NCBI GenBank assembly: GCA_041645165.1
Contig: JBAZQN010000009.1
Coordinates: forward strand, 4,674 to 68,673
Reading direction: 5' to 3'
Source of the DNA: Patescibacteria group bacterium
Lineage (GTDB): Bacteria; Patescibacteriota; Patescibacteriia; 2-02-FULL-49-11
Length of the DNA: 64,000 nt
The notes below the pieces were generated by a model. That model searched no databases, was not told the DNA's origin, and saw only the letters and a list, made by a program, of their open reading frames with translations. Of this stretch, positions 3,545 to 51,412 are shown piece after piece (the first letter of the stretch is position 1; each line of letters opens with the position of its first letter). Made by a program: the position numbers and the translations under genes.

Positions 3545-3660
3545 ACGCTTCGGGAACTGACAATTTTATTCGGCGTCGCGATCACACAGCTTGATGCGCC
3601 TTTCCGCCTCAAAAATTGCAATTCCCTCGCGTTCCTTATTTTTTGGGTAGTGAGCAATTT
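3545..3660. repeat. about 110-nt intergenic repeat, copy 1 of 2 (second copy at 59774-59890)
   Basis: Near-identical string acgcttcgggaactgacaattttattcggcgtcgcgatca..cagcttgatgcgcctttccgcc..aaaaattgca.ttccc at both loci; predicted long-range stem gggaactg..caatttt / aaaaattgca.ttccc with an inner hairpin. Confidence 0.6.
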
Positions 3661-11464: not shown

Positions 11465-11580
11465 CAAAACTCTAAATCCTAAACAAATCCAAATAACCAA
11501 ATCATCGAAACACGTTTTGAATTTGGTGCTTGTTTAGGATTTCGGATTTATCTGGCTACGCCAGATCTCGCGTAGCGAGA
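11465..11580. repeat. CCAAAT/ATTTGG long-hairpin intergenic element plus a gctacgc..gcgtagc hairpin module
   Basis: aaatcctaaacaa (11477-11489) pairs with ttgtttaggattt (11531-11543); the atttggtgcttg module is shared with 48731-48742. Confidence 0.5.
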
Positions 11581-13415: not shown

Positions 13416-15584
13416 ATGGTTAAAAAGAGCGCTTCATCGGATTATCAAGCAAGGCACATTACCGTACTCGAGGGTCTTGATCCGGTCCGGAAAAGGCCGG
13501 GCATGTACATCGGGTCAACCGGCGTGGAAGGGCTCCATCATTTGGTATGGGAAGTGGTTGATAACTCGATTGACGAGGCGATGGCCGGATTTTGCACCGA
13601 GATTACCGTCCGGCTGCTCCCGGGGCGCATGGTGGAGGTGAGCGATAATGGCCGCGGCATCCCCGTTGATATCCATAAACAGACGAAAGTATCCGCGCTG
13701 GAAGTGGTGCTCACCAAGCTCCATGCGGGCGGCAAGTTCGGCCAAGGAGGCTATAAAGTATCGGGAGGGCTGCATGGGGTAGGCGTTTCTGTGGTGAATG
13801 CCCTTTCTTCTTACATGAAGGCAGAGGTGAAGAGAGAGGGGAAGTTATGGGAGCAGGAATATGAACGCGGCAAACCCCGCAGGAAAGTGCGTCCCGTGGG
13901 AAGAGCCTCAGGCACCGGCACCATGATTACCTTCGTGCCTGATACGGAAATTTTTGGCGACATTGGTTTTGATTTCCAAACGGTGCTTGACCACCTCCGC
14001 CAACAGGCATATCTCACGAAGGGGGTGAAGATCATTGTGCGGGATGAACGGATGCGCGAAAAGGTTGACGCAAAAATAAAAGAAAAAGAGCCTCACCCGG
14101 AAGAAAAAGAGCCTCTCGCCTTTGATTTCCTCACTTCTTATATCTTTTATTTTGAAGGCGGCATCCGTTCCTATGTGGCCCATTTAAATCACAACCGGAG
14201 CGTGAAGCAGGAGGTGGTGTTTTATATAGAAAAAGAAATTATACCCAACGGGTCAAACGGCGCGCTTGATAAGGAAACCGCACAGAAAGAAACACAGGTT
14301 GTATCTCATGCGCAAAAGTCTGCCACGCCGATCAAGGTGGAGGTTTCCCTTCAGTATACGGATGATTATCGTGAGACCGTCTATGCGTTCGCCAATAATA
14401 TTTACAACCCTGAAGGCGGCACCCACTTGGTGGGATTCCGCGGCGCGCTCACCCGCGTGCTCAATTCATATGCACGGGCGAAAAGTTATTTGAAAGAAAA
14501 AGACGATAATCTTACCGGCGAGGACGTGCGTGAGGGCTTAACCGCAGTCGTATCGGTCAAGGTGCCGGAGCCGCAATTTGAGGGGCAGACAAAAGCAAAG
14601 CTGGGGAATCCGGAGGTGAAGAATGCGGTGGAATCGGTGTTGGGTGATGCACTCGCTTCATTTTTGGAAGAACATCCGCGCGATGCAGAAGAGATTTTGG
14701 AGAAATGCGTCCTGACACAACACGCAAGAGTGGCCGCGCGCGCGGCGCGCGATACCGTGCTGCGCAAGGGGGCGCTCGATGGGCTCACGCTCCCGGGGAA
14801 GCTCGCAGATTGCTCCACTAAGGATTCGCACCATTCTGAATTGTATATTGTAGAGGGAGACTCTGCGGGCGGCAGCGCGAAACAAGGGCGCAATCGGGAG
14901 TACCAGGCCATTCTCCCCTTGAGAGGCAAAATCCTGAATGTGGAACGCGCGCGGCTGGACAAGATGCTGACCAATAATGAATTGAAATCGCTCATCATTG
15001 CTATAGGCACGAATTTTGGCGAAAATTTCAATCTCGCGGACCTTCGGTATGAGCGTATCATTATCATGACTGATGCGGACGTGGACGGCGCGCATATCAG
15101 GACATTACTCTTAACCTTTTTTTACCGTTATTTCAAGGAACTTATTACCACCGGTCATCTTTTTATCGCACAGCCGCCCCTTTATCGCATACAAAAAGGG
15201 AAAGAGTTTTGGTATGCGTATTCTGACCAGGAAAAGGAAAAAGTGCTCTCATCTATAAGGAGCGTTATTCGCGGGAAAGCGGGAGATGCGCAGACAGAAG
15301 CATCCTCAAAAGAAGAGGTGGGGACAGCGCGTGCGGGCGAGATAGATATCGGTGAAAAGGTGGGCGGCGCGGTAATCCAGCGATATAAGGGTTTGGGCGA
15401 AATGAACCCTACGCAGTTGTGGGAGACGACGATGGATCCCGTAAGGCGGTTCATGTACCAAGTAACCGTCGATGATGCGGAAAAAGCGGATAACATTTTT
15501 GACGTACTCATGGGATCTGAAGTTGATCCCCGCAAGCGCTTCATCCAGACCCATGCGAAATTGGTGAAGAATTTGGACGTGTAG
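13416..15584 (+). CDS. gyrB: DNA gyrase subunit B
   Basis: HITVLEGLDPVRKRPGMYIGST and GLHGVGVSVVNALS in the GHKL ATPase domain; Toprim EGDSAGG and PLRGKILN. Confidence 0.95.
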   Translation: MVKKSASSDYQARHITVLEGLDPVRKRPGMYIGSTGVEGLHHLVWEVVDNSIDEAMAGFCTEITVRLLPGRMVEVSDNGRGIPVDIHKQTKVSALEVVLTKLHAGGKFGQGGYKVSGGLHGVGVSVVNALSSYMKAEVKREGKLWEQEYERGKPRRKVRPVGRASGTGTMITFVPDTEIFGDIGFDFQTVLDHLRQQAYLTKGVKIIVRDERMREKVDAKIKEKEPHPEEKEPLAFDFLTSYIFYFEGGIRSYVAHLNHNRSVKQEVVFYIEKEIIPNGSNGALDKETAQKETQVVSHAQKSATPIKVEVSLQYTDDYRETVYAFANNIYNPEGGTHLVGFRGALTRVLNSYARAKSYLKEKDDNLTGEDVREGLTAVVSVKVPEPQFEGQTKAKLGNPEVKNAVESVLGDALASFLEEHPRDAEEILEKCVLTQHARVAARAARDTVLRKGALDGLTLPGKLADCSTKDSHHSELYIVEGDSAGGSAKQGRNREYQAILPLRGKILNVERARLDKMLTNNELKSLIIAIGTNFGENFNLADLRYERIIIMTDADVDGAHIRTLLLTFFYRYFKELITTGHLFIAQPPLYRIQKGKEFWYAYSDQEKEKVLSSIRSVIRGKAGDAQTEASSKEEVGTARAGEIDIGEKVGGAVIQRYKGLGEMNPTQLWETTMDPVRRFMYQVTVDDAEKADNIFDVLMGSEVDPRKRFIQTHAKLVKNLDV

Positions 15585-15616
15585 ATAACTCAAAATTCAA
15601 AGTTCATAAATAGAAA

Positions 15617-15745
15617 ATATGGAGGTCCGACGTTACGTCGGACCGTAAATCCTTTATTTTGATATTTGTCCCGCACCTATTATTAAACTCATTGGCATGC
15701 GGGATCCCGCTTCTGCGGTGACATTTTGGATTTTACATTAAGGTC
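15617..15745. repeat. composite intergenic element, copy A: cgacgttacgtcgg palindrome module plus an about 85-nt hairpin element with a gcgggatcccgc core
   Basis: Shared with 23318-23400 and, inverted, with 31141-31290; perfect 12-nt palindrome gcgggatcccgc. Confidence 0.6.
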
Positions 15746-15747
15746 AT

Positions 15748-16968
15748 ATGCTTTTCCTAAGCACCCTCCGCAACGCTCCTGTCTATGACAGCAGTTTTGC
15801 GCTGGTCGGGAAATATAAGGATATTATCGCTTCTGCGGTCGCTGACCAATATGCTCCCGTGAAATCATTGGTGGTGACGCTTTTAAAAGGAAAGGGAGAG
15901 TTCGTGATCCTTTGGAGCGTCGTCGAGAATGCGAGCAGGGTGGGTATCCACCTTTCCGCCTTATTATCGCGCGTGACGTCTGCGCAAGTAGACCCTACGG
16001 ATATCCGTCTGCGGGAAAAGGTCCTTGATCATCAGATTGTCGATATTACTGGCGCGCGTGTGGTGCGCGTGAATGATTTGCAATTGGGGACCATTGAAGG
16101 CCGCATGTGCGTCATTGCGATTGACGTGAGCCTGAAAGCGCTTTTGAGACGCCTCAACCTTGATTGGGTGGATGTATTTAATATGATACCGGTGAGGCTT
16201 ATTGACTGGAGGCAGGCGAACCTTGTATCCGGATCAGTGCAGGTTGCAGCACTTTCCAAAGACGTGGTGCATATGCACCCCGCAGACATCGCAACGATTG
16301 TGGAAGATTTAAATGTGAACCAAGGGAGCGAACTGGTAAAATCCTTGGATCTCGCAACGGCTGCACGGGTATTTGAAGAAATAGACCCTGAAACGCGGCG
16401 CATCTTAGTGAAAGCGTTGAGTCCCGACAAAGTAGCGCTGATTACCGATAAAATGCCGCTTGATGAAGTCGTTGATCTTTTAAAATCTCTTCCTGCGGCA
16501 ACGAGCGCGGAGCTGCTCTCTCATCTTCAGTCATCGCGCGCTGCCACAGCGGAACGCTTGCTGCAATACTCAAACCATTCCGCGGGAGGGCTCATGACGA
16601 CGGAATTTATTAAGTGCAGTATTTCCTGTACCGTTGCCCAAGTCATAGAAGAAATTAAGAAGCGCTCTTTTACCTTTCGTTTCATCCACTATGTGTATGT
16701 AGTGGATGATGAGAATCATTTCATGGGAGTTGCCTCTTTTCGGAGGCTGATTACGAGCGATCCGAACCAAACCATGCAGGAGGTCATGCGCGACCGTAAG
16801 GGCTTAAAAACATTAAAGCCTGAACAGCCATTGAGAGAGGTTGCGGTTATCATGGCTAAATACAAGCTATTTTCGGCGGCAGTCGTTGATAAAAAAAGGC
16901 AGCTGCTGGGAGTGATAACTCTCGATGACATCATGCGCCAGCTCGTATCGCACATATACGATGTATAA
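15748..16968 (+). CDS. MgtE-N plus tandem-CBS cytosolic protein with no membrane domain
   Basis: MgtE N-terminal region (HPADIATIVEDL..) followed by a CBS pair; ends before any TM segment. Confidence 0.8.
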   Translation: MLFLSTLRNAPVYDSSFALVGKYKDIIASAVADQYAPVKSLVVTLLKGKGEFVILWSVVENASRVGIHLSALLSRVTSAQVDPTDIRLREKVLDHQIVDITGARVVRVNDLQLGTIEGRMCVIAIDVSLKALLRRLNLDWVDVFNMIPVRLIDWRQANLVSGSVQVAALSKDVVHMHPADIATIVEDLNVNQGSELVKSLDLATAARVFEEIDPETRRILVKALSPDKVALITDKMPLDEVVDLLKSLPAATSAELLSHLQSSRAATAERLLQYSNHSAGGLMTTEFIKCSISCTVAQVIEEIKKRSFTFRFIHYVYVVDDENHFMGVASFRRLITSDPNQTMQEVMRDRKGLKTLKPEQPLREVAVIMAKYKLFSAAVVDKKRQLLGVITLDDIMRQLVSHIYDV

Positions 16969-18494: not shown

Positions 18495-18932
18495 ATGTTT
18501 ATTAAAAAAATATTACATTGGATCGGTTATTTCGCGGTGTTGGGCTCATTTACGCTCATCATGATTGTGGGACCAGGGAAATTCACCTCGATTGAGGAGG
18601 TCCTGGCCCAAGGCTTTGATGATGTGGCGGAAGGTGAGCTTTTTATATTGTCTGATGTGCCTTCAAGTGGGCATCCGTCTCTGCGGCTCTCGCAACGCGA
18701 GCAAGTATGCCGCATAAAAAGTGATTTATTTGAAAGGCTTGCATCAGAATTGCCAAGTTTTAACGGCAGGGAAGTGCAGATTGGCCATGCGCGTGTGAGG
18801 CTTTTGAATACTACTGGCACAAATATTGACGTGTTGGAATTTATGCGGAAGTTTCGGTTAGGGGAGGAAGACTGCATGACGGTGTCGTTTCACAGCTTTT
18901 TATATCCGTTTTTCCATGGCGGGGTGAGTTGA
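18495..18932 (+). CDS. hypothetical membrane-anchored protein
   Basis: 145-aa ORF with an N-terminal TM helix; no family recognised. Confidence 0.4.
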   Translation: MFIKKILHWIGYFAVLGSFTLIMIVGPGKFTSIEEVLAQGFDDVAEGELFILSDVPSSGHPSLRLSQREQVCRIKSDLFERLASELPSFNGREVQIGHARVRLLNTTGTNIDVLEFMRKFRLGEEDCMTVSFHSFLYPFFHGGVS

Positions 18933-18933
18933 C

Positions 18934-19074
18934 GCAAGGGATGACGGCATGAAAAGACGCAGTTGTCTCGCCCGGCGAGCGAGACACTGCTTGACTCTCG
19001 GCCTCGTTCTCCCGCATAGCGGGAACCATGCCCACTCGGCCTCCGAGACACTTTTCATTACCGTCATCCCTTGC
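18934..19074. repeat. about 140-nt multi-hairpin inverted-repeat element
   Basis: 23-nt terminal arms caagggatgacggcatgaaaag / cttttcattaccgtcatcccttg enclose the inner hairpins gtctcgc-ccggc-gagcgagac and cccgc-atag-cggg. Confidence 0.5.
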
Positions 19075-19168
19075 TGGAGTGATAAGAATTGAGACTATGA
19101 ATATACTTCAAACTTTATAGATATCTGCTCGATTTATATGAAGTCTAGTCAATAACATTTTCCTTGAT

Positions 19169-22266: not shown

Positions 22267-23235
22267 ATGCAAAAGAGTTTTTATCGGAAAAGGCAGCACA
22301 TAGAAACTTCATGGGATGAGTCGGCGCAGTGGTACCACGGGCTGGTGGGCGAGAAGGGGATGGAGCTCCAAAGAGCGGTCGTGTTCCCACAGGCGCTTCG
22401 GTTGCTTCATTTGCAGCCTCACGAGAGGCTGCTTGATGTCGCGTGCGGGCAAGGCGCGTTTTGCCGGGAAGCGGTGCGTTATTGTAGAGAGATCGCAGGT
22501 ATAGATGCATCACCGCAGTTGATTGCATTAGCTCGCAATAATTTTTTATATCGGAATTCTAATCTTACATCCAAGGAAACCTCCCCTCACATCCCCTCCT
22601 TCGTAAGGAGGGGAGGGGGTGGTCTCGTTAATATATCAAAAAAAATTAAATATTATGTAGGCGACGCAAGGAAATTGCCAAAGGAAGTGGTAGGGGAGCG
22701 TTTTGACGCCATTTCATGCATACTTGCCATTTCAAATATTGATCCCATAAAACCCGTATTTGAAGAATGCAAGAAAATTTTAAAACCGTCAGGCCGCTTG
22801 GTGCTGGTGGTTGCGCACCCCTGTTTCCGCATCCCGCGGCAGAGCGGGTGGGGGTGGGACGAGCAGAGGAAGCTGCAGTACCGGAGGGTTGACCGCTATT
22901 TGAGTGAAATGAAAATTCCCATTCAAATGCATCCGGGAGGGCGTTCGCACGAGGTGACGTGGACATTTCATCGTCCGCTCGGGGTGTATATGCGCGCATT
23001 GACAGAAGCAGGTTTTGCTGTTGACGCGATGGAAGAATGGACTACCAACCGCAAAAGCACGCCCGGACCACGTGCGCGCGCAGACATGAATTCTAAACAG
23101 GAAATACCACTATTTTTAACGATGAGAGCAATCAGTGTTAATGTCAAAGCTCAAAGTTTCCCACCTCAGCGGGATCCCGCTTTCCTTGAGAATAAGAAAT
23201 CAAGGAGCGGGACAAATGCCATGGTTCGACAGTAG
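22267..23235 (+). CDS. class I SAM-dependent methyltransferase with an internal low-complexity insertion
   Basis: Motif I LDVACGQGAF; the insertion at 22578-22620 holds a perfect 9-bp-stem palindrome. Confidence 0.75.
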   Translation: MQKSFYRKRQHIETSWDESAQWYHGLVGEKGMELQRAVVFPQALRLLHLQPHERLLDVACGQGAFCREAVRYCREIAGIDASPQLIALARNNFLYRNSNLTSKETSPHIPSFVRRGGGGLVNISKKIKYYVGDARKLPKEVVGERFDAISCILAISNIDPIKPVFEECKKILKPSGRLVLVVAHPCFRIPRQSGWGWDEQRKLQYRRVDRYLSEMKIPIQMHPGGRSHEVTWTFHRPLGVYMRALTEAGFAVDAMEEWTTNRKSTPGPRARADMNSKQEIPLFLTMRAISVNVKAQSFPPQRDPAFLENKKSRSGTNAMVRQ

Positions 23236-23317
23236 TTCGACAGGCTCACTATGACATAGCTCACCATGACAAATAAGATGTGTCATCCTGAGCCGAGTCG
23301 AAGGGTTGTCATTCCTT

Positions 23318-23400
23318 TGAACTTTGTCCCGCACTATGAATTATTTTATCTAAGGTATGCGGGATCCTGCCTGAGCAGTGAGATTTTGAATTTTGAAATT
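23318..23400. repeat. GGATCC-core hairpin element, copy B
   Basis: tttgtcccgcac..gtatgcgggatcctgc..agtgagattttgaattttg aligns with copies A and C. Confidence 0.55.
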
Positions 23401-24970: not shown

Positions 24971-25561
24971 ATGCGACGCAAAGGTTTTACATTGATAGAG
25001 TTATTAGTTGTCACTAGCATTATTGGTTTGCTGGCAACTTCAGCCGTGGTAGCGCTAAATAATGCGAGGCAGAAAGCCAGAGATACGGCGCGGTTGAGTA
25101 CTGTAGATAAAATTAGAAAAATAATGTCATATAAACTTAATAATAATGATGTAAATTTTGGTTGCAGCGCTGTTGACACTACTTATCCGGTTTATACCTG
25201 TTCAACTTTTCCAGAATATGTGGCAAATTTAGAAACTTTTAAAGATCCGACTAAGCCAACAGAAGCGTGTAATGGCACAAATACAACTAATTGTAATTAC
25301 GCTTTTAATTATAATCCATACAGAGGAACAATCTATCTTTTATATTTTAGATTAGAAGGCCCAACCATTTTAGGCAATACTGGTGCGATTAATTGCGTTG
25401 CCACGCCAACAGGTATGGCTTGCGGGACTGATATTTCAATTTTTGGTTGTAGCAGTTCGTGCAGTGGGAGCTCAAACTGGAGCTATTGTTCTATATTTGA
25501 TTTTAACGGCAGTGGGTGCGTGGATGCAAACGATAGGTCTTATACTTGGAATAATAGATAA
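24971..25561 (+). CDS. type IV pilin-like protein (prepilin, class III signal), Cys-rich
   Basis: MRRKG|FTLIELLVV with Glu at +5; the N-terminal hydrophobic helix is followed by a Cys-rich globular domain. Confidence 0.8.
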
Positions 25562-25586
25562 TATTCTTTTATAAAACTTAATAAAT

Positions 25587-26198
25587 ATGCGACGCAAAGG
25601 TTTTACATTGATAGAGTTATTAGTTGTCACTGGCATTATTGGTTTGCTGGCAACTTTGGCCGTGGTGGCGCTAAATAATGCGAGGCAGAAAGCCAGGGAT
25701 ACTAAAAGATTAGTTGACATTAATGCTATTAGAAAAGCCATGGCTTTTAAATTTGATAATAATGAAGTTGGTGATTATCAGTGCGACGAGGCGCGCGGTC
25801 CAAGTAATGCTTGGGTTTTTCCAGTTTATACTTGTGATGGGCTTGCCTCTTATCTGCCAAGATTTGCTAATATTAAGGATCCTTTAAATACTGATAATCC
25901 TTGCGATGGAACTAATACAGATGGTTGTAATTATGCCTTTTATAACCCACCATATAGCGGTACTGCTTATTTAATTTATTTTCATTTAGAAGGTAGCACT
26001 AAGTTGGGTAACAGTGGTGCAGCTAATTGTGTGGCGACAGCTAGCAATTATTCATGTGCTGATAATGTCTCTTTTTTCTATTATTGCAGTAATACTTGTC
26101 AAGGTGATCAAAAGTGGCAGACATGTTCTATTTATGATGCTAATGGCAGTGGTTGCATTGACGCCAATGATAGATCATATTTTTGGAATAATAGATAA
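25587..26198 (+). CDS. type IV pilin-like protein, paralog 3
   Basis: Same prepilin N-terminus; about 97% identical to paralog 4; the 25-nt spacer after paralog 2 suggests co-transcription. Confidence 0.8.
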   Translation: MRRKGFTLIELLVVTGIIGLLATLAVVALNNARQKARDTKRLVDINAIRKAMAFKFDNNEVGDYQCDEARGPSNAWVFPVYTCDGLASYLPRFANIKDPLNTDNPCDGTNTDGCNYAFYNPPYSGTAYLIYFHLEGSTKLGNSGAANCVATASNYSCADNVSFFYYCSNTCQGDQKWQTCSIYDANGSGCIDANDRSYFWNNR

Positions 26199-26240
26199 AT
26201 TTTTTTCATAAGACTTAATTTATTATTACTTTTTTAAATC

Positions 26241-26322
26241 ATATGTTAGACATCAACAGATTCGCTCGGGAAAAGAAGCAATTAAAATTAAAGTTCACCC
26301 AAAGCATGGGTATAAAATAAAT
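26241..26322 (+). promoter_or_regulatory. conserved pilin leader/promoter region, copy 2
   Basis: Duplicate of 24895-24970 with a 6-nt insertion. Confidence 0.55.
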
Positions 26323-26934
26323 ATGCGACATAAAGGTTTTACATTGATAGAGTTATTAGTTGTCACTGGCATTATTGGCTTGCTGGCAACTTTGGCCGTG
26401 GTGGCGCTAAATAATGCGAGGCAGAAAGCCAGGGATACTAAAAGATTAGTTGACATTAATGCTATTAGAAAAGCCATGGCTTTTAAATTTGATAATAATG
26501 AAGTTGGTGATTATCAGTGTGACGCGGCGCGCGGTCCCAGTGATATTTGGGTTTATCCAGTTTATACTTGTGATGGGCTTGCCTCTTATCTGCCAAGATT
26601 TGCTAATATTAAGGATCCTTTAAATACTGATAATCCTTGCGATGGAACTAATACAGATGGTTGTAATTACGCCTTTAATTCTCCACCATATAGCGGCACT
26701 GCTTACTTAATTTATTTTCATTTAGAAGGTAGCACTAAGTTGGGTAACAGTGGTGCAGCTAATTGTGTGGCGACAGCTAGCAATTATTCATGTGCTGATA
26801 ATGTTTCTTTTTTCTATTATTGCAGTAATACTTGTCAAGGTGATCAAAAGTGGCAGACATGTTCTATTTATGATGGCGATGGTAGTGGTTGCATTGACGC
26901 CAATGACAGATCATATTTTTGGAATAATAGATAA
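26323..26934 (+). CDS. type IV pilin-like protein, paralog 4
   Basis: MRHKG|FTLIELLVV; near-duplicate of paralog 3, with differences clustered in three short patches. Confidence 0.8.
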   Translation: MRHKGFTLIELLVVTGIIGLLATLAVVALNNARQKARDTKRLVDINAIRKAMAFKFDNNEVGDYQCDAARGPSDIWVYPVYTCDGLASYLPRFANIKDPLNTDNPCDGTNTDGCNYAFNSPPYSGTAYLIYFHLEGSTKLGNSGAANCVATASNYSCADNVSFFYYCSNTCQGDQKWQTCSIYDGDGSGCIDANDRSYFWNNR

Positions 26935-31140: not shown

Positions 31141-31290
31141 AAATGCAAAACGCAAAATCTCACCGCTTTAGCGGGATCCCGCATACCATTGAGATTAACA
31201 ATAAGGTGCGGGACAAAAGTCAAAATTATGGAGATACGACGTTACGTCGGATCGGAATACCTTCATTTTGATTTTTGAGTTTTGGTTTTT
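31141..31290. repeat. composite intergenic element, copy C: GGATCC-core hairpin inverted relative to copies A and B, plus the acgacgttacgtcgg module
   Basis: The reverse complement of 31141-31228 aligns at about 80% with 15668-15745; the module tatggagatacgacgttacgtcggatcgg matches 15617-15645. Confidence 0.6.
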
Positions 31291-36392: not shown

Positions 36393-37163
36393 ATGGATAC
36401 AATTTCAATAATAATCCCCGCCTTTAACATGCAGCGTGCGCTTGCGCGCTGTAGTGTGCATGTTGCGGAACAAACTCTAAAACCCTCGGAGGTTATTATT
36501 GTTGACGACGGTTCAATCGATGGAACTGCCATATGGGCAGAAGAAGCAAGGCGTACATTACCCTTTGAGGTCAGCGTACTGACACAAGACCATCGGGGGG
36601 CATCAGCAGCCCGTAATTGTGGATTTAAACAATCTCACGGCACACTGGTCGTATTTCTTGATGCGGATGTGATATTGAAAAAACACGCGTTGGAAAGGTT
36701 GTATATATCGTTAAATCAAAAATCAAAAATCTCCGCCCAAGGCGGATCCGCCTCAGGCGGAAAAAATCAAAATTTAGGAGTAGGTTATGCCTACAGTTCA
36801 TTTAGATGGGGGCGGAAGAAGTTCCCTTCCTACCCTTTTGATGCAGCTCGCTTGCGCCAGATGCCCTATATCCATACTACCTCCCTGATAAAACGCGAAA
36901 CGCTCCCGGAGAATCCATTTGATGAACAATTAAAACGGCTGCAGGATTGGGATCTTTACCTCACGCTTCTTGAACGGGGTACCATAGGTGCCTATGTGCC
37001 GGAAATTCTATTTACCGTGGAAACAAAAGGCACCATGAGCCGTTGGTTGCCGTCCATCATGTACCAGATACCTTTTACCAAGTTTGGCATGAATATTTCG
37101 AGACTTAATAAGTACCGCGAAGCAGAACAAATTATTAAAACGAAACACAAGCTTAATAATTGA
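36393..37163 (+). CDS. family-2 glycosyltransferase carrying an in-frame 30-nt palindromic insertion
   Basis: IIVDDGSIDGT...FLDADV; the segment encoding SAQGGSASGG coincides with the repeat at 36732-36761. Confidence 0.75.
   Translation: MDTISIIIPAFNMQRALARCSVHVAEQTLKPSEVIIVDDGSIDGTAIWAEEARRTLPFEVSVLTQDHRGASAARNCGFKQSHGTLVVFLDADVILKKHALERLYISLNQKSKISAQGGSASGGKNQNLGVGYAYSSFRWGRKKFPSYPFDAARLRQMPYIHTTSLIKRETLPENPFDEQLKRLQDWDLYLTLLERGTIGAYVPEILFTVETKGTMSRWLPSIMYQIPFTKFGMNISRLNKYREAEQIIKTKHKLNN
36732..36761. repeat. 30-nt GGATCC-centred double-hairpin element, copy 1, inside the GT2 CDS and in-frame
   Basis: tccgcccaaggcggatccgcctcaggcgga flanked by aaaaatc / aaaaaatc; second copy at 47579-47608. 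Confidence 0.55.
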
Positions 37164-37211: not shown

Positions 37212-38222
37212 ATGTATTCTATAGGTATGGGTAATCTAAAAAAGATGAAAAGAATTGCACACAGAACCGAGAAGGTTCTGTTATTCGTTCGTGAATTGTC
37301 TAGTATTTCAAAAAAGGATATTGCTCTTGCAGGTGGGAAGGGGGCAAGTTTGGGTGATTTGATGCGGGCGGGGCTGCCGGTACCCGCTGGATTCGTAGTG
37401 ACAGCAGCGGCATTTGATCGGTTTCTGGAAGAAAATGAATTGCTTGAAGATATCGATGCGCAATTAAGCAGAGTGAATTATAAAGATACGAATTCAATTG
37501 ATCGTGCATCAAATGTGATTCGTGCGCTTATCCTTGAGGCTCCGTTTCCTAAAGACCTGCGGCAGGAAGTTATAAAATTTTTTGGCACACTTAATACTTC
37601 CTTCGTGGCAGTGCGCAGCAGCGCGACTGCGGAGGATTCAAAGACGGCAAGCTGGGCAGGGGAGTTGGAGACTTATTTAAATACTATTGCAAAGACATTA
37701 TTTGCGAATATCCAAAAATGCTGGGCGTCGCTTTTTAGCCCACGAGCGATTTTTTACCGTCATGAGAAGCGATTGCACCGCGTGAAAGTGTCAGTTGCGG
37801 TTGTCGTGCAGGCGATGGTCGAGTCAGAGGTTGCCGGAATCGCATTTACGGTGCATCCGGTGACGAAAGACAAAAATCAAATGATTATAGAAGCAGGGTG
37901 GGGATTGGGGGAAGCGGTGGTGTCCGGCCAGATTACCCCTGATTCGTATGTGCTGCATAAAAAAGATTATTCAGTAATAGATCTCCATACTGCCAGACAA
38001 GAAAAAAAACTTGTACGCAATCAAAAAGGAAATGGCGACTGTTGGGTTTCTGTACCTAAAAAACTACGGACAAAGCAAAAGCTTACGACTGCACAAATAA
38101 AAACATTAGCGGAGCTCTGTATGCGCGTCGAGCGCCATGAGCGATTTCCTTGCGACATTGAGTGGGCATTAGTCCGTGGCAAGTTTTACCTGCTCCAGAG
38201 CAGACCTATCACAACCTTATGA
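37212..38222 (+). CDS. stand-alone PEP-utilising-enzyme N-terminal ATP-grasp domain protein (PPDK_N / PpsA N-domain only)
   Basis: ALAGGKGASLGDLMRAGLPVPAGFVV..; 336 aa and ends where the PpsA/PPDK mobile His domain would begin. Confidence 0.7.
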   Translation: MYSIGMGNLKKMKRIAHRTEKVLLFVRELSSISKKDIALAGGKGASLGDLMRAGLPVPAGFVVTAAAFDRFLEENELLEDIDAQLSRVNYKDTNSIDRASNVIRALILEAPFPKDLRQEVIKFFGTLNTSFVAVRSSATAEDSKTASWAGELETYLNTIAKTLFANIQKCWASLFSPRAIFYRHEKRLHRVKVSVAVVVQAMVESEVAGIAFTVHPVTKDKNQMIIEAGWGLGEAVVSGQITPDSYVLHKKDYSVIDLHTARQEKKLVRNQKGNGDCWVSVPKKLRTKQKLTTAQIKTLAELCMRVERHERFPCDIEWALVRGKFYLLQSRPITTL

Positions 38223-38224
38223 CT

Positions 38225-38530
38225 ATGCCCAGTTATACAACTTCCCATATGTTCTTTTATGTCTATGTACTACAAAGTATAAAGGATAATAATAAATACA
38301 TAGGGTATACGAATAACCTGAAAAGGAGACTGGAAGAACATAGGAAAGGCTTAAATTTTGCAACAAAGTTTAGACTACCATTTAAACTCATTTACTTCGA
38401 AGGATGTCTTAATATAAACGACGCCAAACGCCGTGAACATTATCTGAAAGGAACTCAAGGCCGGAGATTCCTAGGTCTGCGACTACAGGAATACACTCGC
38501 AGTAAACCAGCGTTTGGCGTGGGAAGTTGA
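38225..38530 (+). CDS. GIY-YIG nuclease-domain protein
   Basis: FYVYVLQS..KYIGYTNNLKRRLEEHRKG matches GIY-YIG; the start is uncertain (ATG at 38225 or 38249; the ORF-track GTG at 38162 overlaps the upstream gene). Confidence 0.65.
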   Translation: MPSYTTSHMFFYVYVLQSIKDNNKYIGYTNNLKRRLEEHRKGLNFATKFRLPFKLIYFEGCLNINDAKRREHYLKGTQGRRFLGLRLQEYTRSKPAFGVGS

Positions 38531-41113: not shown

Positions 41114-41204
41114 CTCCTTTAATCGCTAGAGTTAACAGTTTTAGATTTTAAAATAGGTTTAACGTTGTAAAATAGCAGAAGAAGAAGAAGTCAAGAGGGG
41201 AGGT

Positions 41205-41372
41205 AATGTCCCAATTTCCAATCTCCAATATCAAATTAATGTCCAATGCCCAACGAATGATTAAATGCCTGAATGGCCAGTTTGATGTTTTATGAATTGG
41301 GTTTTCAGCCGAAGGCTGGTCCGCCTCTGGCGTGATATTGGAAATTGGTCATTGGGGTTTGGGATTTTTCAC
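41205..41372. repeat. CCAAT/ATTGG long inverted repeat upstream of the GT2 gene
   Basis: Left arm gtcccaatttccaatctccaatatcaaattaatgtccaatgcccaa (41209-41254); right arm ttggtcattggggtttgggattt (41345-41367). Confidence 0.45.
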
Positions 41373-42370: not shown

Positions 42371-43189
42371 ATGTATCTTTCCATAATTATCTTGAACTAT
42401 AAAAAAATCAATCTGGTGCGGCAGCAACTCCGTTCATTAGACGAGCTCCATCTGCCATTTTCTTATGAAACAATTGTGGTTGATAATGCGTCAGGCGATC
42501 GTATAGAGACGCTTTCAAAAGAGTTTCCCAACGTTCTGGCATTGCCGCTTACATGGAATTGCGGAATGGGCGCAGGGAATAATACCGGCCTGAAACGCGC
42601 GCAAGGAGAATATGTGCTGATCCTTAACCCTGATGTCATCCTGTTGCCGCGCGCGATTGAAACGCTCTGCGAATACCTTTCAAAGTCACCGCGGGTCGGT
42701 ATGGCAGGACCAAAATTGCTAAACCCTGACCAGACTCTCCAATACAGCTGTTTCCGTTTTCCGCGCTGGTATACCCCTTTTTTTCGAAGAACAAAACTGT
42801 CGCATTTCAGCGCTGGCAAAAGTGAACTGGACCGTTTCTTAATGCGCGAATGGGATCATAATGATATCCGCTCCGTCGAATGGCTGCAGGGTTCTGCGTT
42901 TCTTGTGCGGCGCAATGCGCTCGAGGAGGTTGGTTTATTTGATGAGCGATTTTTTCTTTTTTTTGAAGATACGGACTGGTGCCGGCGTTTTTGGCAGAAG
43001 CATTGGGAGGTGGCGTATGTGCCAGATGCGGTTATGGTCCACTATCCGCAGCGACTTTCATCGTTTGACGGGATCTGGACTTTTTTTAACCGGCTCACCT
43101 GGATCCATATATCCTCATGGGTCAAATATTTTTGGAAGTGGAGAAACCAGAGGTTAAATCCCAATGACCAATTCCCAATGACCAATTAG
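42371..43189 (+). CDS. family-2 glycosyltransferase
   Basis: IVVDNASGD..LNPDV; its 3' end overlaps the first CCAAT-repeat arm. Confidence 0.8.
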   Translation: MYLSIIILNYKKINLVRQQLRSLDELHLPFSYETIVVDNASGDRIETLSKEFPNVLALPLTWNCGMGAGNNTGLKRAQGEYVLILNPDVILLPRAIETLCEYLSKSPRVGMAGPKLLNPDQTLQYSCFRFPRWYTPFFRRTKLSHFSAGKSELDRFLMREWDHNDIRSVEWLQGSAFLVRRNALEEVGLFDERFFLFFEDTDWCRRFWQKHWEVAYVPDAVMVHYPQRLSSFDGIWTFFNRLTWIHISSWVKYFWKWRNQRLNPNDQFPMTN

Positions 43190-43245
43190 TGACGCGGATT
43201 CGTATATTGCGAAGTTTGGGATTTGGAATTTGTAATTTGGAATTT
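43156..43245. repeat. CCAAT/ATTGG long inverted repeat
   Basis: aaatcccaatgaccaattcccaatgaccaatt (43156-43187) faces tttgggatttggaatttgtaatttggaattt (43215-43245). Confidence 0.55.
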
Positions 43246-43255
43246 ATCATGTGAT

Positions 43256-45205: not shown

Positions 45206-45334
45206 ATTTAGTCACAATTAAGTGTCTAAATTGATAGAAGATATAGTTATTAATAACCTCTCACGGGCATACCGTTGAGGTTTTGTTATTATACATTCTG
45301 TAAAACAAGAATAATTATTAAAAGATACCTGTAC

Positions 45335-45362
45335 CTATATACAGCGATCGTTGCTAATAGGG
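45335..45362. repeat. 28-bp imperfect palindrome, copy 1, 49 nt upstream of the PaaX-like gene
   Basis: cctatatacagcgatcgttgctaatagg; second copy cctatataccacgatcgctgctaatagg at 45984-46011 (3 mismatches). Confidence 0.55.
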
Positions 45363-45410
45363 AGGGATATGATATACTCTTTTTATACTTTTATCCATTA
45401 AGAAGTAAAT

Positions 45411-45959
45411 ATGAGTTTGCGCACTAAGGAGTCTCTCACAGAACGTGTACTTTCTAAACTCACTGAGCTTGAGCCGATTTTTAGTATGTCATCAGGCGCG
45501 GCGTATGAGCTTTTCGGTTTTAATGATCTTAGAAAAATGAGACGGTGGGACCGCTATAAGCGCGAAAAGGCAAAACGTGAACAAGATCGCATTAAGAAAG
45601 CGTTTAGGAATCTGGTAAATGCAGATCTTGTGACTTTGATAAAAGGAAAAGAGGGTAAGTACCGCCTTACCCCAAAAGGATGGCTTAAATATGCGTATAC
45701 CTACTCACAGCATTTCAAAACATCAAATGCTCCTCAAGGTAAGCAAGGTGGCTACATCCTTATTTTCGATATACCCGAACAATATCGGCATTTCCGCGAT
45801 ACCTTTCGTAACGTGCTCTATTCGCTTGGATTCAGCCAGTTGCAAAAGAGTGTTTTCTTTACCCAAGACAAGAAAGCGTTCGAATTCGCAGGCAGAATTG
45901 TAGTGAATTGTGAATTAGAAGAGAGGGTAAAATTTGTAGTTGCGGATAAGATATTCTAG
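45411..45959 (+). CDS. PaaX-like protein (winged-helix N-domain plus PaaX_C/Cas2-like-fold C-domain), putative transcriptional regulator
   Basis: Wing-like KGKEGKYRLTPKGW; C-terminal GGYILIFDIPEQYRHFRDTFRNVLYSLGFSQLQKSVFF resembles PaaX_C/Cas2. Confidence 0.45.
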   Translation: MSLRTKESLTERVLSKLTELEPIFSMSSGAAYELFGFNDLRKMRRWDRYKREKAKREQDRIKKAFRNLVNADLVTLIKGKEGKYRLTPKGWLKYAYTYSQHFKTSNAPQGKQGGYILIFDIPEQYRHFRDTFRNVLYSLGFSQLQKSVFFTQDKKAFEFAGRIVVNCELEERVKFVVADKIF

Positions 45960-45983
45960 CGAAAAAGTGTATTTGTATCTATG

Positions 45984-46011
45984 CCTATATACCACGATCG
46001 CTGCTAATAGG
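45984..46011. repeat. 28-bp imperfect palindrome, copy 2, 25 nt downstream of the PaaX-like gene
   Basis: See copy 1 at 45335-45362. Confidence 0.55.
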
Positions 46012-46261
46012 CACTGATTCAAATTAAGGAATGGAGAGAAATAACAAGATGGAAGATGGATGGAAGATAGAAAGAAGAAAATTGAAGGTTTCTGTTTTTT
46101 GTGAGGTGAAAGAAAAAGTATCGTAGGGGGAAAAGTGTATAATAGTTCAATAAAAAGCAAAAACCGCGAATGATTATACGAGTGGAATATCGTACATCAC
46201 TGCGGCTTTTTTGATGTCAGTCGTGAGGTGCGGTTGGTGGGTGATTTAGGGAGGGTAATTC

Positions 46262-47269: not shown

Positions 47270-47575
47270 ACGGTCATAAGGTGAATAGGACGGATAAGTC
47301 GTAATAGGGTGGATAGGTCGGATAAGATTGTAAGTCGGAATAGGGCAGATAAGGCAAATAGGGTGGGTGAGTCGTGATTAGGGCGGATAAGTTGGAAAGG
47401 TTGGATAAATTAAATTGGACTGGTGGGTTGGATAGGTTAATGTATTGAGATAATAGTTTGTTTATTTTTGACGAAAGGGGGATTTTTATGTATAGTAAAG
47501 ACACTGAATGAGCACTGAATTGGTTGTGGTGTAACACTGAAATGACACTGAAGTTGAGACACTGAAGTTATGAGT
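47270..47575. repeat. low-complexity tandem repeats: G-rich GGATAAG/GGATAGG units, then five CACTGAA units
   Basis: ggataagtcg, ggataggtcg, ggcagataag, gggcggataag... followed by acactgaatgagcactgaat..cactgaaatgacactgaagttgagacactgaag. Confidence 0.45.
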
Positions 47576-47578
47576 TTT

Positions 47579-47608
47579 TCCGCCCGAGGCGGATCCGCCT
47601 TTGGCGGA
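47579..47608. repeat. 30-nt GGATCC-centred double-hairpin element, copy 2 (intergenic, 26 nt upstream of mreB)
   Basis: tccgcccgaggcggatccgcctttggcgga flanked by gagtttt / gagtt. Confidence 0.55.
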
Positions 47609-47633
47609 GAGTTCTAAGTTTTGAGTTCCTGTT

Positions 47634-48641
47634 ATGTTCATCAAGAGAATCGGGATTGATTTGGGTACGACGTATACGCTGGTGTATGTGCCCACGAAAG
47701 GTATTGTAATCAATGAACCTTCGGTGGTGGCGCATTCGCTTTCGGACCGTAGGGTGCTCGCGGTTGGGGAGGAAGCCAAGGAAATGATCGGCCGCACGCC
47801 TGACACGATTGTGGCGTCCCGGCCATTGAAAGATGGCGTGATCGCGGATTACCGCACCACAGAAGCTATGCTGCGGTATTTTATTAATAAAGCCATTGGC
47901 GGCGTGCGGCTTTTTAGGCCTGAAGTTATGGTTGCGGTGCCCGCAGGCATCACTTCCACGGAGCGCCGTGCCGTTATTGACGCAACAATAGCCGCAGGCG
48001 CGAAAACCGCCTATCTCATCAAGGAACCGATTGCCGCCGCCATTGGCGCAAAAATCCCTATTGGTTCAGCATCCGGCCATATGATTGTGGACACAGGAGG
48101 AGGCACTTCTGAAGTCGCAGTCATATCGCTCGGCGGTATAGTGGCCAATACTTCTATGCGCACCGGCGGCAACAGGTTTGACAGCGCTATCACAGAGTTC
48201 ATCAGGCGCAAGTATAACCTTGCGATAGGCGAGCGCACCGCGGAAGACATCAAGATTTCCATAGGTTCTGCATTGTTTCTTGAAAAAAAGCTTTCTATGA
48301 ATGTGCGCGGCCGCGACACGGTCACCGGTCTTCCCCGTACCATTACCGTAACCTCGGACGACGTGACGGAAGCAATTCAGCATGAGCTGGAAACTGTCAT
48401 TTCCGCAGTGAAATCCGTGTTTGCAGCAACACCGCCAGAGCTATGCGCTGACGTGATTGATAAAGGCATGGTGCTCTCAGGCGGCAGCTCTTTGTTAAGA
48501 AACATCGACAAGCTGCTCTCCCAAGCGACGGGTGTGCCTTCCTATGTGGCAGATGAACCGCTGCTGTGCGTCGCGCGCGGCACTGGGGTGGCGCTTGATA
48601 ATTTAGATGCGTATAAGAGGAGCATACTCGCTACGCGATAG
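47634..48641 (+). CDS. mreB: rod shape-determining protein MreB (actin-like ATPase), paralog 1
   Basis: IGIDLGTTYTLVYV..GIVINEPSVVA.. with phosphate-1/2 and adenosine motifs. Confidence 0.9.
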   Translation: MFIKRIGIDLGTTYTLVYVPTKGIVINEPSVVAHSLSDRRVLAVGEEAKEMIGRTPDTIVASRPLKDGVIADYRTTEAMLRYFINKAIGGVRLFRPEVMVAVPAGITSTERRAVIDATIAAGAKTAYLIKEPIAAAIGAKIPIGSASGHMIVDTGGGTSEVAVISLGGIVANTSMRTGGNRFDSAITEFIRRKYNLAIGERTAEDIKISIGSALFLEKKLSMNVRGRDTVTGLPRTITVTSDDVTEAIQHELETVISAVKSVFAATPPELCADVIDKGMVLSGGSSLLRNIDKLLSQATGVPSYVADEPLLCVARGTGVALDNLDAYKRSILATR

Positions 48642-48648
48642 ATCGCGT

Positions 48649-48755
48649 AAATCCCAATGCCCAATGCCCAATAAAATTCCAAATCCCAATATCCAAATCA
48701 TAAATACCCTTCGACAGGCTCAGGGTGACAATTTGGTGCTTGCAATTTGGAATTT
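48649..48755. repeat. CCAAT/ATTTGG long inverted repeat plus the adjacent gctacgc..agatc..gcgta module
   Basis: aaattccaaat (48675-48685) faces aatttggaattt (48744-48755); atttggtgcttg is shared with 11521-11532. Confidence 0.5.
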
Positions 48756-48763
48756 ATAATGTT

Positions 48764-49684
48764 ATGCGCGAGAGTAATATAATTCTATTTCACAGAGAAA
48801 TTAGGGCACGATTAGGCCGTGAATATCAAGCTGGCACCATGCACCATGCCTATCTTTTTACCGGCCCGCGCGGCATAGGCAAGGCCACATTGGCCAAGTG
48901 GTGCGCGCAAATGGTCCAGTGTGAAGCTTTAGCATTATCTGACGCGCCATGCGGAAAATGCGCACATTGCCGCGCGATTGAGCACGGCACCATGCCGGAT
49001 GTGACTATAGCCGCTGCGGACCGCAACGTGCGCACCGTCAGTATTCGCGAAGTGCGGGACGCGCAGGAGAGGCTTCATCAGACTCCTCTTAAGGGCCGTT
49101 TTTCCGTCCTTATTCTCATAGACGCAGACCGCGGTACGATTGCCGCACAGAACGCCTTCTTGAAAACGCTGGAAGAGCCGCATCCGCGCTCACTCCTTAT
49201 TCTTACTGCAACGCAGCCATCACTGCTACTGCCCACCATCCATTCGCGGGTCGCCGCGATCCCTTTCAAGCGCATCTCCCATCATGATATGATGAGTGCT
49301 CTTAAATCAGAGTCCGTTGCCGCAGAACAGCTCATCCCTCTTGCTAACTATGCGCAGGGAGTGCCAGGAAAAATTTTCGATAATTTTAAACTGCGCGAGG
49401 ATGTGGCGTCTATGTTGGCGCAAGTTGATGCGCTTAAAGATTTTAAAAACGCGCCTTTTTGGGAATTACAGACGCAGATTCGCAAGATGCTGGCGCGCTA
49501 TGGGAAAGCGCCTGACGCGTTATTGCAGCTCTTGCGCAATGAAATGGCGCTCCTGTTCCGTGATCAGGACGTTTCACCCTGCGCGCGCAAGGCGCTTGGC
49601 GCACTTTGGTCCGCGCACGCGCATCATGTCAATCAAGATTTAGCCCTTGATATATTATCGTTATCACTTGCGCAACGCCTATGA
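48764..49684 (+). CDS. holB: DNA polymerase III subunit delta'
   Basis: HAYLFTGPRGIGKATLA and zinc module CGKCAHC; start placed at the ATG at 48764. Confidence 0.8.
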   Translation: MRESNIILFHREIRARLGREYQAGTMHHAYLFTGPRGIGKATLAKWCAQMVQCEALALSDAPCGKCAHCRAIEHGTMPDVTIAAADRNVRTVSIREVRDAQERLHQTPLKGRFSVLILIDADRGTIAAQNAFLKTLEEPHPRSLLILTATQPSLLLPTIHSRVAAIPFKRISHHDMMSALKSESVAAEQLIPLANYAQGVPGKIFDNFKLREDVASMLAQVDALKDFKNAPFWELQTQIRKMLARYGKAPDALLQLLRNEMALLFRDQDVSPCARKALGALWSAHAHHVNQDLALDILSLSLAQRL

Positions 49685-50730
49685 TGAAATCCATTCTCTT
49701 TATCCTTCTTTCCATGATGCTTTTTACCGGAATTTCATGCAGTACCATATCATTGTCAACGAACAAGGCGACAGATGGCGGGGTGTATAAGTCCCTGAAT
49801 CGCGGCGAAATATGGGAACAGAAAGTATTTGTGGAAAAAGTAAAAAAGAAAATCAACACTATTGCGAGTGTCAATGTGAAGCGATTTGTGGCAGATCCGG
49901 AAGATAGCAGAGTTATCTACCTTATTACGCGCGAATCCGGCCTTTGGAAGACTACAGATGGGGCGGAGCGGTGGTTCTCCATTTACCAAGGAGGGGGCAT
50001 CTCCTCGCTGGTACTTGATGCGCGCGATACCGCCCGGCTGTATCTCGCGGCAGGGAATAGGATATTGACCTCTGGCGACGGGGGGAATACCTGGGAAGAG
50101 ATATATCTTGAACCGCGTTCCAATGTCAGCATTACGAGCCTTTTGATAAATCGTAATGATGCGCGGCACGTAATCGCTTCTACGAGCGCGGGAGATATCC
50201 TGGAAAGCAGGGATGAGGGAGGAAGTTGGAAAGTAGCGTACCGTTTCGATATGCCGGTATTGGGGCTTTTGCAGTTGCCGAAATCAAATTATATTTTTGC
50301 CACCACGCAGAATCAGGGCATTTGGCGCAGCACGGACGAAGGCAAAACATGGAAGTCGGTTTCAGAATCACTGAAGGAGTTCTCCGGTGCGCTTGAAAAT
50401 AAGACGCTCATTCCCGATCCCGCCACCCCAAACGCGCTTTTGCTCGCGACAGTATACGGCATTTTTCGCACCACGAACAACGGCGATGCATGGCAGTCCA
50501 TACCCCTCATATCAAAGCCGGGGACCATAGAAATCCTTTCATTGGCGGTGAATCCAAAGAATTCGTCACAAATCTATTACACGGTGCCTCAAGCGCTCTA
50601 TGCAAGCAGCAATGGCGGCGCGCGTTGGGCAACGCTCGCGCTTCCCAGCGGCAGACTCCCTACTGCGCTTTCCGTTGATGCGTATAACCCGGATATCCTC
50701 TATATGGGGGTTACGAATCCCAAAAAGTAG
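49681..50730 (+). CDS. secreted BNR/Asp-box repeat beta-propeller protein (Ycf48-like)
   Basis: Seven SxDxGxxW-type repeats (TTDGAERW, SGDGGNTWEE, SRDEGGSWK, STDEGKTWKS, TTNNGDAWQS, SSNGGARWA); N-terminal signal/lipobox-like LFTGISC. Confidence 0.7.
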   Translation: MMKSILFILLSMMLFTGISCSTISLSTNKATDGGVYKSLNRGEIWEQKVFVEKVKKKINTIASVNVKRFVADPEDSRVIYLITRESGLWKTTDGAERWFSIYQGGGISSLVLDARDTARLYLAAGNRILTSGDGGNTWEEIYLEPRSNVSITSLLINRNDARHVIASTSAGDILESRDEGGSWKVAYRFDMPVLGLLQLPKSNYIFATTQNQGIWRSTDEGKTWKSVSESLKEFSGALENKTLIPDPATPNALLLATVYGIFRTTNNGDAWQSIPLISKPGTIEILSLAVNPKNSSQIYYTVPQALYASSNGGARWATLALPSGRLPTALSVDAYNPDILYMGVTNPKK

Positions 50731-51391: not shown

Positions 51392-51412
51392 TTAGGCAGC
51401 CCGCATAAAGCT

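Follow-up and report, generated by a model that had tools for sequence, protein, structure and literature searches.

A double-hairpin repeat dispersed among the AT-rich intergenic spacers of a Patescibacteria genome and its relatives

REP, BIME and REPIN elements are short imperfect palindromes with GC stems that are found in both orientations, mostly in the spacers between co-directional genes, as single copies, pairs or small clusters mixed with other short motifs, the so-called BIME mosaic (PMC3116915, PMC3337134). A REPIN, as described in PMC3337134, consists of two inverted REPs with a short spacer, which together form one long hairpin. MITEs (miniature transposable elements with inverted repeats), such as Correia/NEMIS, ERIC, RUP, BOX and SPRITE, are small and non-coding, lie near genes, form hairpins in transcripts and may be present in one genome and missing from a related one; they can bring with them promoters, IHF sites, sites for RNase III or RNase E and terminator-like hairpins (PMC10969869). 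The palindromic elements of the small Rickettsia genome (RPEs) are about 150 bp long and lie mainly inside genes, in frame (PMC10969869). Here we describe a family of this general kind, recognized in a 64,000-nt stretch from a Patescibacteria group bacterium (assembly GCA_041645165.1, contig JBAZQN010000009.1, positions 4,674 to 68,673 of the forward strand), which we refer to as the window. The element is a dispersed, orientation-free double-hairpin module located at the apex of AT-rich intergenic spacers. We favor, with a probability of roughly 0.6, the reading that it is a small non-coding dispersed palindromic repeat, comparable to enterobacterial REP/BIME and to hairpin-type MITEs.

An alignment of the window copies with about 50 relatives defined a core of about 57 nt, TTTG-[TCCCGC(N)..AT-rich..(N′)GCGGGA]-[TCCCGC-loop-GCGGGA or GCGG-T-GA], that is, two tandem hairpins, each closed by an identical 6-bp foot, 5′-TCCCGC...GCGGGA-3′. 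The interior of hairpin 1 is AT-rich and 16-29 nt long, whereas hairpin 2 carries a tetraloop, to which one subfamily adds a bulged T. A large subfamily that ends in GCGGGAAAATTTG (subfamily 2) carries A's directly 3′ of the hairpin 2 stem. The foot reads the same as its reverse complement, so that each DNA strand, and RNA read either way, folds into the same hairpin pair, and the minimum-free-energy folds of all four window copies consisted of hairpin 1 and hairpin 2 on both strands. Compared with shuffled sequences, these folds were clearly more stable for copies C (z −3.5) and D (z −2.5) and weakly so for copies A and B (z about −1.5). The first-pass annotation of this DNA had described an element of about 85 nt with a 12-nt palindrome capable of alternative folds. 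The conserved part is the shorter core given above, made up of TTTG, hairpin 1 and hairpin 2. A perfect 12-bp palindrome is present in three of the four window copies, but gcgggatcccgc is the mere junction of the two hairpins: GCGGGATCCCGC is the 3′ arm of hairpin 1 plus the 5′ arm of hairpin 2, and its GGATCC centre corresponds to GA|TC, the point where they join. On both strands, all folds were hairpin 1 plus hairpin 2, and insertion variants keep hairpin 2 paired but not the palindrome, which thus does not stand as a separate feature.

The window contains four copies of the core, A, B, D and C. Allowing up to one mismatch, the 12-mer GCGGGATCCYGC gave nine strand-matches against 0.55 expected, a number that none of 100 shuffles reached; pairwise identity between the copies found by repeat finding was 79-82%. 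A covariance model built from the wider family (R1) and run with filters off scored four full copies at 66-78 bits, the next match in the window being at 25 bits. Copy A (15665-15721, + strand; sequence, fold and a model score of 77.8 bits) begins with TTTG (15665-15668), followed by hairpin 1, in which TCCCGCA (15669-15675) pairs with TGCGGGA (15698-15704) around an AT-rich interior of 22 nt, and by hairpin 2, composed of TCCCGC (15705-15710), the loop ttct, GCGG (15715-15718), a bulged T (15719) and GA (15720-15721). On its 3′ side a T-rich tail extends to 15739, and the ATG of a gene for an MgtE_N/CBS protein is at 15748. Copy B (23323-23381, + strand, 70 bits) has hairpin 1 at 23327-23364 and hairpin 2, TCCTGC-ctga-GCAG-T-GA, at 23365-23381, where a C>T/G>A double change leaves the pair intact; the BFN gene starts at the ATG at 23409. 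Copy C (31160-31217, − strand, 74 bits) is inverted and lies between rpmJ, which ends at 31133 (stop codon 31131-31133), and rpsM (ATG 31306). Copy D (23159-23216, − strand, 66 bits), also inverted, has an extended hairpin 1 stem, TCCTTGA/TCAAGGA, and the hairpin 2 TCCCGC-tgag-GTGGGA. Copies D and B are arranged head-to-head, 106 nt apart. Three of the cores are wholly intergenic, and D overlaps the 3′ end of a methyltransferase open reading frame (ORF), under the tail of that frame. The copies are placed where unrelated genes or operons meet, the neighbors by Pfam being GyrB, an MgtE_N/CBS protein followed by Nramp, a class I methyltransferase, a BFN-domain protein, IF-1, L36 and S13.

These results sustain the core of the first-pass annotation, namely a hairpin repeat family in both orientations, with A and B on the + strand and C and D on the − strand. 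Its three copies are all where it had put them and exceed chance, although it overlooked the fourth, D. Pfam likewise confirmed the names it had given to the neighboring genes (gyrB, MgtE_N/CBS, methyltransferase, BFN, L36 and S13). The convergent gene context that it had proposed for some copies was not found, as the genes beside the copies are all on the + strand and co-directional and no copy lies between convergent genes.

The family extends well beyond the window. We scanned one genome per species, 596 Gb in all, with the pattern TTTGTCCCGC-N18-34-GCGGGATCC and obtained at least 120 loci, where our own arithmetic predicts about 74 chance matches; the E-values of these matches are inflated, as the pattern fixed 19 bases. 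In about 45 of these at least 120 loci, a full second hairpin and tail follow directly after the pattern, which by our estimate would happen by chance roughly once in 4000. An independent scan of metagenomes was anchored on hairpin 2 and the tail only (ATCCCGC-N3-6-GCGGTGATAATT), and in about 80 of the 92 unique matches listed a paired hairpin 1, with an interior of 3-30 nt, was located immediately 5′. Together, the two scans yielded well over 100 further copies, and the family recurs in many uncultivated lineages. Its carriers are named as Patescibacteria (Uhr-, Falkow-, Kerfeld-, Gottesman- and Parcubacteria), Saganbacteria/Margulisiibacteriota (Margulisbacteria) and Omnitrophota, some labels of metagenome-assembled genomes being doubtful. 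No copy was found on viral contigs, where two pattern matches, both lacking hairpin 2, were taken as chance. Four loci have tandem copies (L202, L146, L224 and L233), and in nine others hairpin 2 accepts insertions of 15-45 nt, themselves hairpins, with the foot still paired (L012, L064, L019, L005, L029, L020, L007, L111 and L095). The interior of hairpin 1 is on average 77% identical within genomes, against 60% between genomes. For the 112 unique copies of the two scans, a count by orientation, one of the checks proposed in the first-pass annotation, gave 27 sense and 29 antisense copies where the flanking ORFs are co-directional; a further 9 have divergent or convergent ORFs on their two sides, and 47 were unplaced. 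The metagenome set alone gave 19 sense and 13 antisense. The gene calls behind these counts, based on the longest ORFs, are crude.

In an alignment of 52 copies fitted to the model, 92% of the cells pair. At position 7 of hairpin 1, 22 copies have C-G, 10 have U-A and 8 have A-U, with 12 unpaired; the other six of the seven hairpin 1 pairs never vary, though the search pattern had fixed those. Further paired changes occur in the stems of copy B (CTGC/GCAG) and of L088 (TCCCGAC/GTCGGGA). Of the 13 modelled pairs, six are invariant; both partners change in only two, and for one of these two in just one copy, in stems that the searches had partly fixed. Pairing that is kept, together with a conserved stem sequence, points to recognition of sequence as well as shape. 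Wobble pairs, five on the transcribed strand and three on the other, are too few to show selection at the RNA level.

Comparison of orthologous spacers at three sites, the most informative of the tests, shows the element being gained, lost or replaced by other hairpin modules over the time that separates genomes with flanking proteins 85-97% identical. Of the named relatives, Candidatus Uhrbacteria RIFCSPLOWO2_02_FULL_49_11 is the nearest; the sequence studied here is also present in ENA assembly ERZ27249422 and Logan run SRR8449827, and exact-sequence look-ups returned no match for L36 and only the same genome for S13. The order gyrB-mgtE-Nramp is kept in relatives with an MgtE-like protein 91, 90 and 85% identical, and the gyrB-mgtE spacer has four different contents in four related genomes: copy A and a second module (module 2) in the window, an unrelated module in the Uhrbacteria genome and seven other contigs, another GC-rich hairpin in L136, and only AT-rich words, with no GC hairpin, in L137. 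Between rpmJ and rpsM, four contigs with S13 90-97% identical have an AT-rich spacer with neither copy C nor module 2. At the methyltransferase-BFN site of the Uhrbacteria relative, a CCTGCCCGCC...GGCAGGCGGG hairpin replaces the double hairpin, while the right flank is identical over 30 nt up to the ATG and the left flank over 16 of 17 nt (cattcttttgaactttg vs cattcctttgaactttg), and the substitution affects both inverted slots, including that of D. Since hairpins are swapped here between flanks that are kept, the exchangeable unit is the hairpins themselves, and the T-rich tail at this site is part of the spacer; the T-rich stretch after the core is at least partly flanking spacer, because a relative retains it around a different hairpin. 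The element sites of L109 and L034 are syntenic with window positions 49650-52580, where the window has other hairpins. For the copy in L027, a locus of the Uhrbacteria genome, the reciprocal empty-site comparison found no homolog of the flanking genes in the window.

Module 2 is 64 nt long and occurs twice, both times on the + strand, with 80% identity. Its first copy (15605-15668, 62 bits) has the hairpin GGTCCGACG-tta-CGTCGGACC at 15624-15644 within a conserved frame, aaaat(a/t)tggag...cc(t)ttcattttgat, and its second (31214-31277) has the hairpin GATACGACG-tta-CGTCGGATC at 31233-31253. It adjoins the same (TTTG) end of the element, once by its own 3′ end and once by its 5′ end, and therefore the two modules are independent, which is in line with the first-pass annotation of a second module beside copies A and C in differing relative arrangement. 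In L027, module 2 adjoins an inverted element copy and its flanks are kept, with TCCCGC-attg-GCGGGA in place of CGACG-tta-CGTCG. The inverted pair D/B encloses a further spacer module of 106 nt, family X (23217-23322, + strand), homologous to the gyrB-mgtE spacer module of the Uhrbacteria relatives L128-L135 at about 1058-1165 (nhmmer E about 1e-10). Thus, the proposal that spacers here are built from exchangeable short modules was broadly right, given the contents that differ between relatives at gyrB-mgtE, at methyltransferase-BFN and in module 2 of L027. In the spacers generally, A-rich words stand on the left and are answered by complementary words on the right, with GC hairpins at the apex, and from this word order whole spacers are long AT-rich imperfect palindromes with variable apexes.

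The window also contains compact sister double hairpins with other feet. The one at 36732-36761 (TCCGCC-caa-GGCGGA/TCCGCC-tca-GGCGGA, 24.9 bits) lies in frame in a GT2 glycosyltransferase ORF; that at 47579-47608 belongs to an inverted copy of 36700-36775 and ends 25 nt before the mreB ATG at 47634; and that at 11551-11580 (TCTGGC-tac-GCCAGA/TCTCGC-gta-GCGAGA) has still other feet and the same GA/TC junction. These sister modules keep the TC...GA ends and the GA/TC junction with other stem sequences. Under strict rules we counted 15 double hairpins, where shuffles gave 0-2; among them, in other genomes, are hybrids that combine the TCCCGC and TCCGCC feet. Under loose rules GATC-centred tandem hairpins showed no excess (24 vs 18 in shuffles).

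The element shares with REP and BIME its short GC stems, its place in spacers between co-directional genes in both orientations, its occurrence as single, paired or clustered copies mixed with other motifs, copies that are more alike within than between genomes, and a conserved stem sequence, as expected of protein-read repeats. Nevertheless, it is built of two hairpins in tandem that share one foot sequence, and not of a single hairpin or one long REPIN hairpin. The REPIN architecture is absent, as only D and B form an inverted pair, and these lie 106 nt apart around another module. REP classes are characterized by a conserved 5′ tetranucleotide of the GTAG type, and the element has none. REPINs are mobilised by a cognate RAYT (Y1 transposase), whose single-copy gene usually has the repeats on its flanks; no such gene was seen in the 39 window ORFs scanned. 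REP classes are also lineage-specific, while the same stem sequence occurs here in lineages named as different phyla. Like MITEs, the element is small, non-coding, close to genes, capable of forming hairpins in transcripts and variable among related genomes, being absent from the gyrB-mgtE and rpmJ-rpsM spacers of relatives and replaced at methyltransferase-BFN. Unlike them, it measures about 57 nt, far less than most MITEs, and it has no parent insertion sequence, no terminal inverted repeats apart from the hairpin feet and no target-site duplication. With RPEs it has in common its palindromic nature, a small genome and in-frame occurrence in genes (copy D in the methyltransferase tail, the sister element in the GT2 gene), but it is shorter than they are, mainly intergenic and without sequence similarity to them. 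The subterminal hairpins of IS200/IS605 elements and of their palindrome-associated derivatives are a similar imperfect pair, in some cases with an extra-helical T, that a Y1 HUH transposase would read on the single DNA strand. The repeat resembles these elements in having two similar imperfect hairpins and in lacking inverted terminal repeats and target duplications, a likeness that we take as a mechanistic lead only, as we identified no transposase, cleavage-site motifs or guide-sequence pairing for the element. Rfam, searched over the whole window at the gathering score, matched only a tRNA, and over 15560-15780 at E up to 10 its best match was at 16 bits against a 44-bit threshold; a full-text search of the literature for the palindrome and for Patescibacteria repeats, hairpins and MITEs returned only primers or unrelated papers. 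The family is undescribed, and with no REPIN architecture, no RAYT in the 39 ORFs and no terminal inverted repeats or target duplications, it belongs formally to none of the named families. For this reason we class it as a new family of the general REP/BIME/MITE kind.

For such a repeat, new copies would arise from the copying of a folded single strand or from recombination between hairpin modules, and some enzyme probably reads the foot, because the stem sequence is conserved and not only the stem pairing. When transcribed within an operon, the double hairpin would probably form a stable structure affecting mRNA 3′-end stability, processing or read-through, like REP, Correia and ERIC elements, and it would have no gene-specific regulator role. 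Several observations speak against a dispersed repeat of this kind. No mobilising enzyme was found: the 39 window ORFs scanned include no transposase domain, Y1_Tnp included, and no protein recurs beside the element, as an all-against-all BLASTP of the ORFs at 45 loci found housekeeping synteny only. Neither terminal inverted repeats nor target-site duplications are clearly present, and the TTTG/ATTTTG flank words recur but are not matched copy by copy (A, ATTTG/ATTTTG; B, CTTTG/ATTTTG; D, ATTTG/CTTTG); we considered them as a target-site duplication, since the words on the two sides correlate across genomes, and rejected this because the words are subfamily-specific and no match exists within the window copies. 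None of the window copies is recent, given that their hairpin 1 interiors are only 62-80% alike. Moreover, mobility is deduced from presence and absence among species-level relatives, and no insertion junction was seen between near-identical genomes. Lastly, near-invariant stems across lineages named as different phyla are not what selfish repeats usually show and could instead reflect a function conserved for the host.

That function would be a signal read by a conserved protein common to Patescibacteria and neighboring ultra-small lineages (Saganbacteria/Margulisbacteria and Omnitrophota), with the double hairpin or its foot, UCCCGC/GCGGGA, as a binding or processing site and not a lineage-specific selfish repeat. 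An RNase, a termination or anti-termination factor and a single-strand DNA-binding enzyme are candidate readers, and the signal might mark operon boundaries either way round owing to its symmetry. In its favor, the stem sequence, beyond its pairing, is near-invariant over Patescibacteria classes, Saganbacteria/Margulisbacteria and Omnitrophota, but that apparent invariance is partly a matter of ascertainment, as the first search fixed the hairpin 1 stems and the second hairpin 2. The sister modules of the same genome, which retain the TC...GA ends and the GA/TC junction, module 2 of a relative, which bears the same foot, the position of the window copies at the meeting points of unrelated genes or operons and the symmetric foot, which makes orientation irrelevant, all agree with a host signal. 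Even so, we regard it as unlikely. Close relatives lack the element in the corresponding spacers, and therefore no particular gene needs it; other spacers hold unrelated hairpins or none, and no candidate protein was found. The same absence from orthologous spacers bears on a second possibility, that the element is a cis-regulatory RNA, or an intrinsic terminator or attenuator of the adjacent gene, whose palindrome allows alternative folds. Copies A and B do lie 27 nt upstream of start codons, with a T-rich tract after hairpin 2 in both, and the folds of C and D stand out from shuffles as noted above, although those of A and B do not clearly do so. However, half of the copies run antisense to the genes beside them (27:29 by orientation), the downstream genes are mutually unrelated, stem covariation is slight, and Rfam gave no match even at E up to 10. 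The terminator-like fold claimed in the first-pass annotation fared no better: no copy was called a terminator by a consensus scan (26 terminator-like sites in all, vs 21 in shuffles), and subfamily 2 has A's, not T's, directly after the stem. A short distance to the next gene also failed to hold in the larger metagenome sample. We consider this reading, largely refuted by the orientation data and the orthologous comparisons, highly improbable.

It is scarcely credible that the element acts as double-stranded DNA, either as an operator, with GCGGGATCCCGC as the site of a dimeric protein, or through TCCCGC as a DNA-uptake word. The perfect palindrome in three of four copies would suit a dimeric protein, and Patescibacteria carry pilus and competence genes, with pilin-like genes in the window at 24971-26934. 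Yet the distances between the arms vary, with 3-30 nt inside hairpin 1 and hairpin 2 loops from 3 to more than 40 nt with nested hairpins, and therefore fit extruded hairpins and not a fixed duplex site; the paired changes in copy B, in L088 and at position 7 likewise keep the stems. TCCCGC is no more frequent in the window than expected (29 vs 30.8), nor is GCGGGA to any extent (42 vs 39.5), and GATC is not unusual. Two other ideas were tried and rejected. A promoter reading, suggested by the position of many copies 14-28 nt ahead of an ATG or tRNA gene and by TATAAT-like loops and GATAAT after hairpin 2, was dropped since half of the copies are antisense, the hexamer spacing is wrong and promoter-like sites number 35 against 33.8 in shuffles. 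An apparent rule that the hairpin 2 side always abuts a gene end failed in the larger metagenome sample.

Returning to the dispersed repeat, its interest lies in the contrast between the tiny genomes of Patescibacteria, with few known regulatory signals, and spacers crowded with exchangeable hairpin modules, some of them read through by genes. If it is only selfish, it is an ordinary addition to the catalogue of bacterial repeats. As a defined family it can be searched for and used as a marker for assembly breaks and as a handle for finding the enzyme that copies or reads such hairpins, and it lends itself to asking whether the small repeats of reduced genomes are parasites or serve to punctuate operons. 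Should a conserved protein read it after all, the reader could be a hairpin-specific HUH-type enzyme, implying a pan-lineage REP-like system, or a factor for RNA processing or termination, marking the limits of operons in organisms without evident canonical terminators; the near-invariant foot, the exchange of hairpins in conserved frames, and the TC...GA ends and GA/TC junction of the sister modules would then be its recognition rules.

Overlap with coding sequence was seen at two places. The methyltransferase ORF (22267-23235) encodes 322 aa, against 255-285 aa in homologs, and its last ~33 residues come from the spacer arm and copy D. The TCCGCC sister element is in frame inside the GT2 glycosyltransferase ORF (36393-37163), where the Pfam match spans it, and a comparison of the protein with a paralog and solved structures gave no decision on whether the repeat-encoded residues are an insertion. 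That sister element is the centre of a 76-nt repeat, coding at 36700-36775 (residues about 103-128), with an inverted intergenic copy at 47565-47640. The methyltransferase ORF also has an in-frame insertion of ~31 aa ('NNFLYRNSNLTSKETSPHIPSFVRRGGGGLVNIS', 22558-22650), absent in five homologs and matched in part, inverted, by intergenic positions 54248-54272 upstream of a second mreB-like gene; it looks like another small repeat inserted in frame.

Other observations concern spacers and repeats. The contigs L138, L139 and L122, from relatives and in one case from the same genome, end in or beside these spacers, which is consistent with repeats breaking short-read assemblies. A-rich words (CCAAT, CAAAT, TCAAAA) on the left and complementary T-rich words on the right are seen in the window at 41204-41360, 43140-43255 and 48647-48765 and in the rpmJ-rpsM spacers of L138-L141, and family X contains GTCATCCTGAGC...GAAGG-type motifs. 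An element of ~140 nt at 18930-19075 is palindromic, with outer arms GCAAGGGATGACGG / CCGTCATCCCTTGC and a central TCCCGC-ata-GCGGGA hairpin. At 3545-3630 and 59774-59859, 56 kb apart, there is an 86-nt direct repeat with 93% identity, each copy just downstream of a gene and containing a TTCGGCG..CGCCGAA hairpin. At 52722-52836, a hairpin, ATTCCCGC-28 nt-GCGGGAAT, is followed by ctggattccagatcaagtctggaatgac; motifs of this type are common in spurious ORFs of many uncultivated genomes.

Finally, three loci are worth recording for their genes. The pilin-like genes at 24971-26934 are three tandem paralogs of ~200 aa, the first with an N_methyl (pilin-type) domain on record, and their coding sequences and spacers are repeated at 63-97%. 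The ORF at 45411-45959 encodes a PaaX central Cas2-like domain and lies between two 43-nt repeats (45326-45368 and 45976-46018). A GIY-YIG nuclease ORF (38162-38530) overlaps the end of an ORF (37212-38222) that holds only an N-terminal PPDK domain, and the region 37212-38530 may be a gene interrupted by a homing-endonuclease-like insertion.

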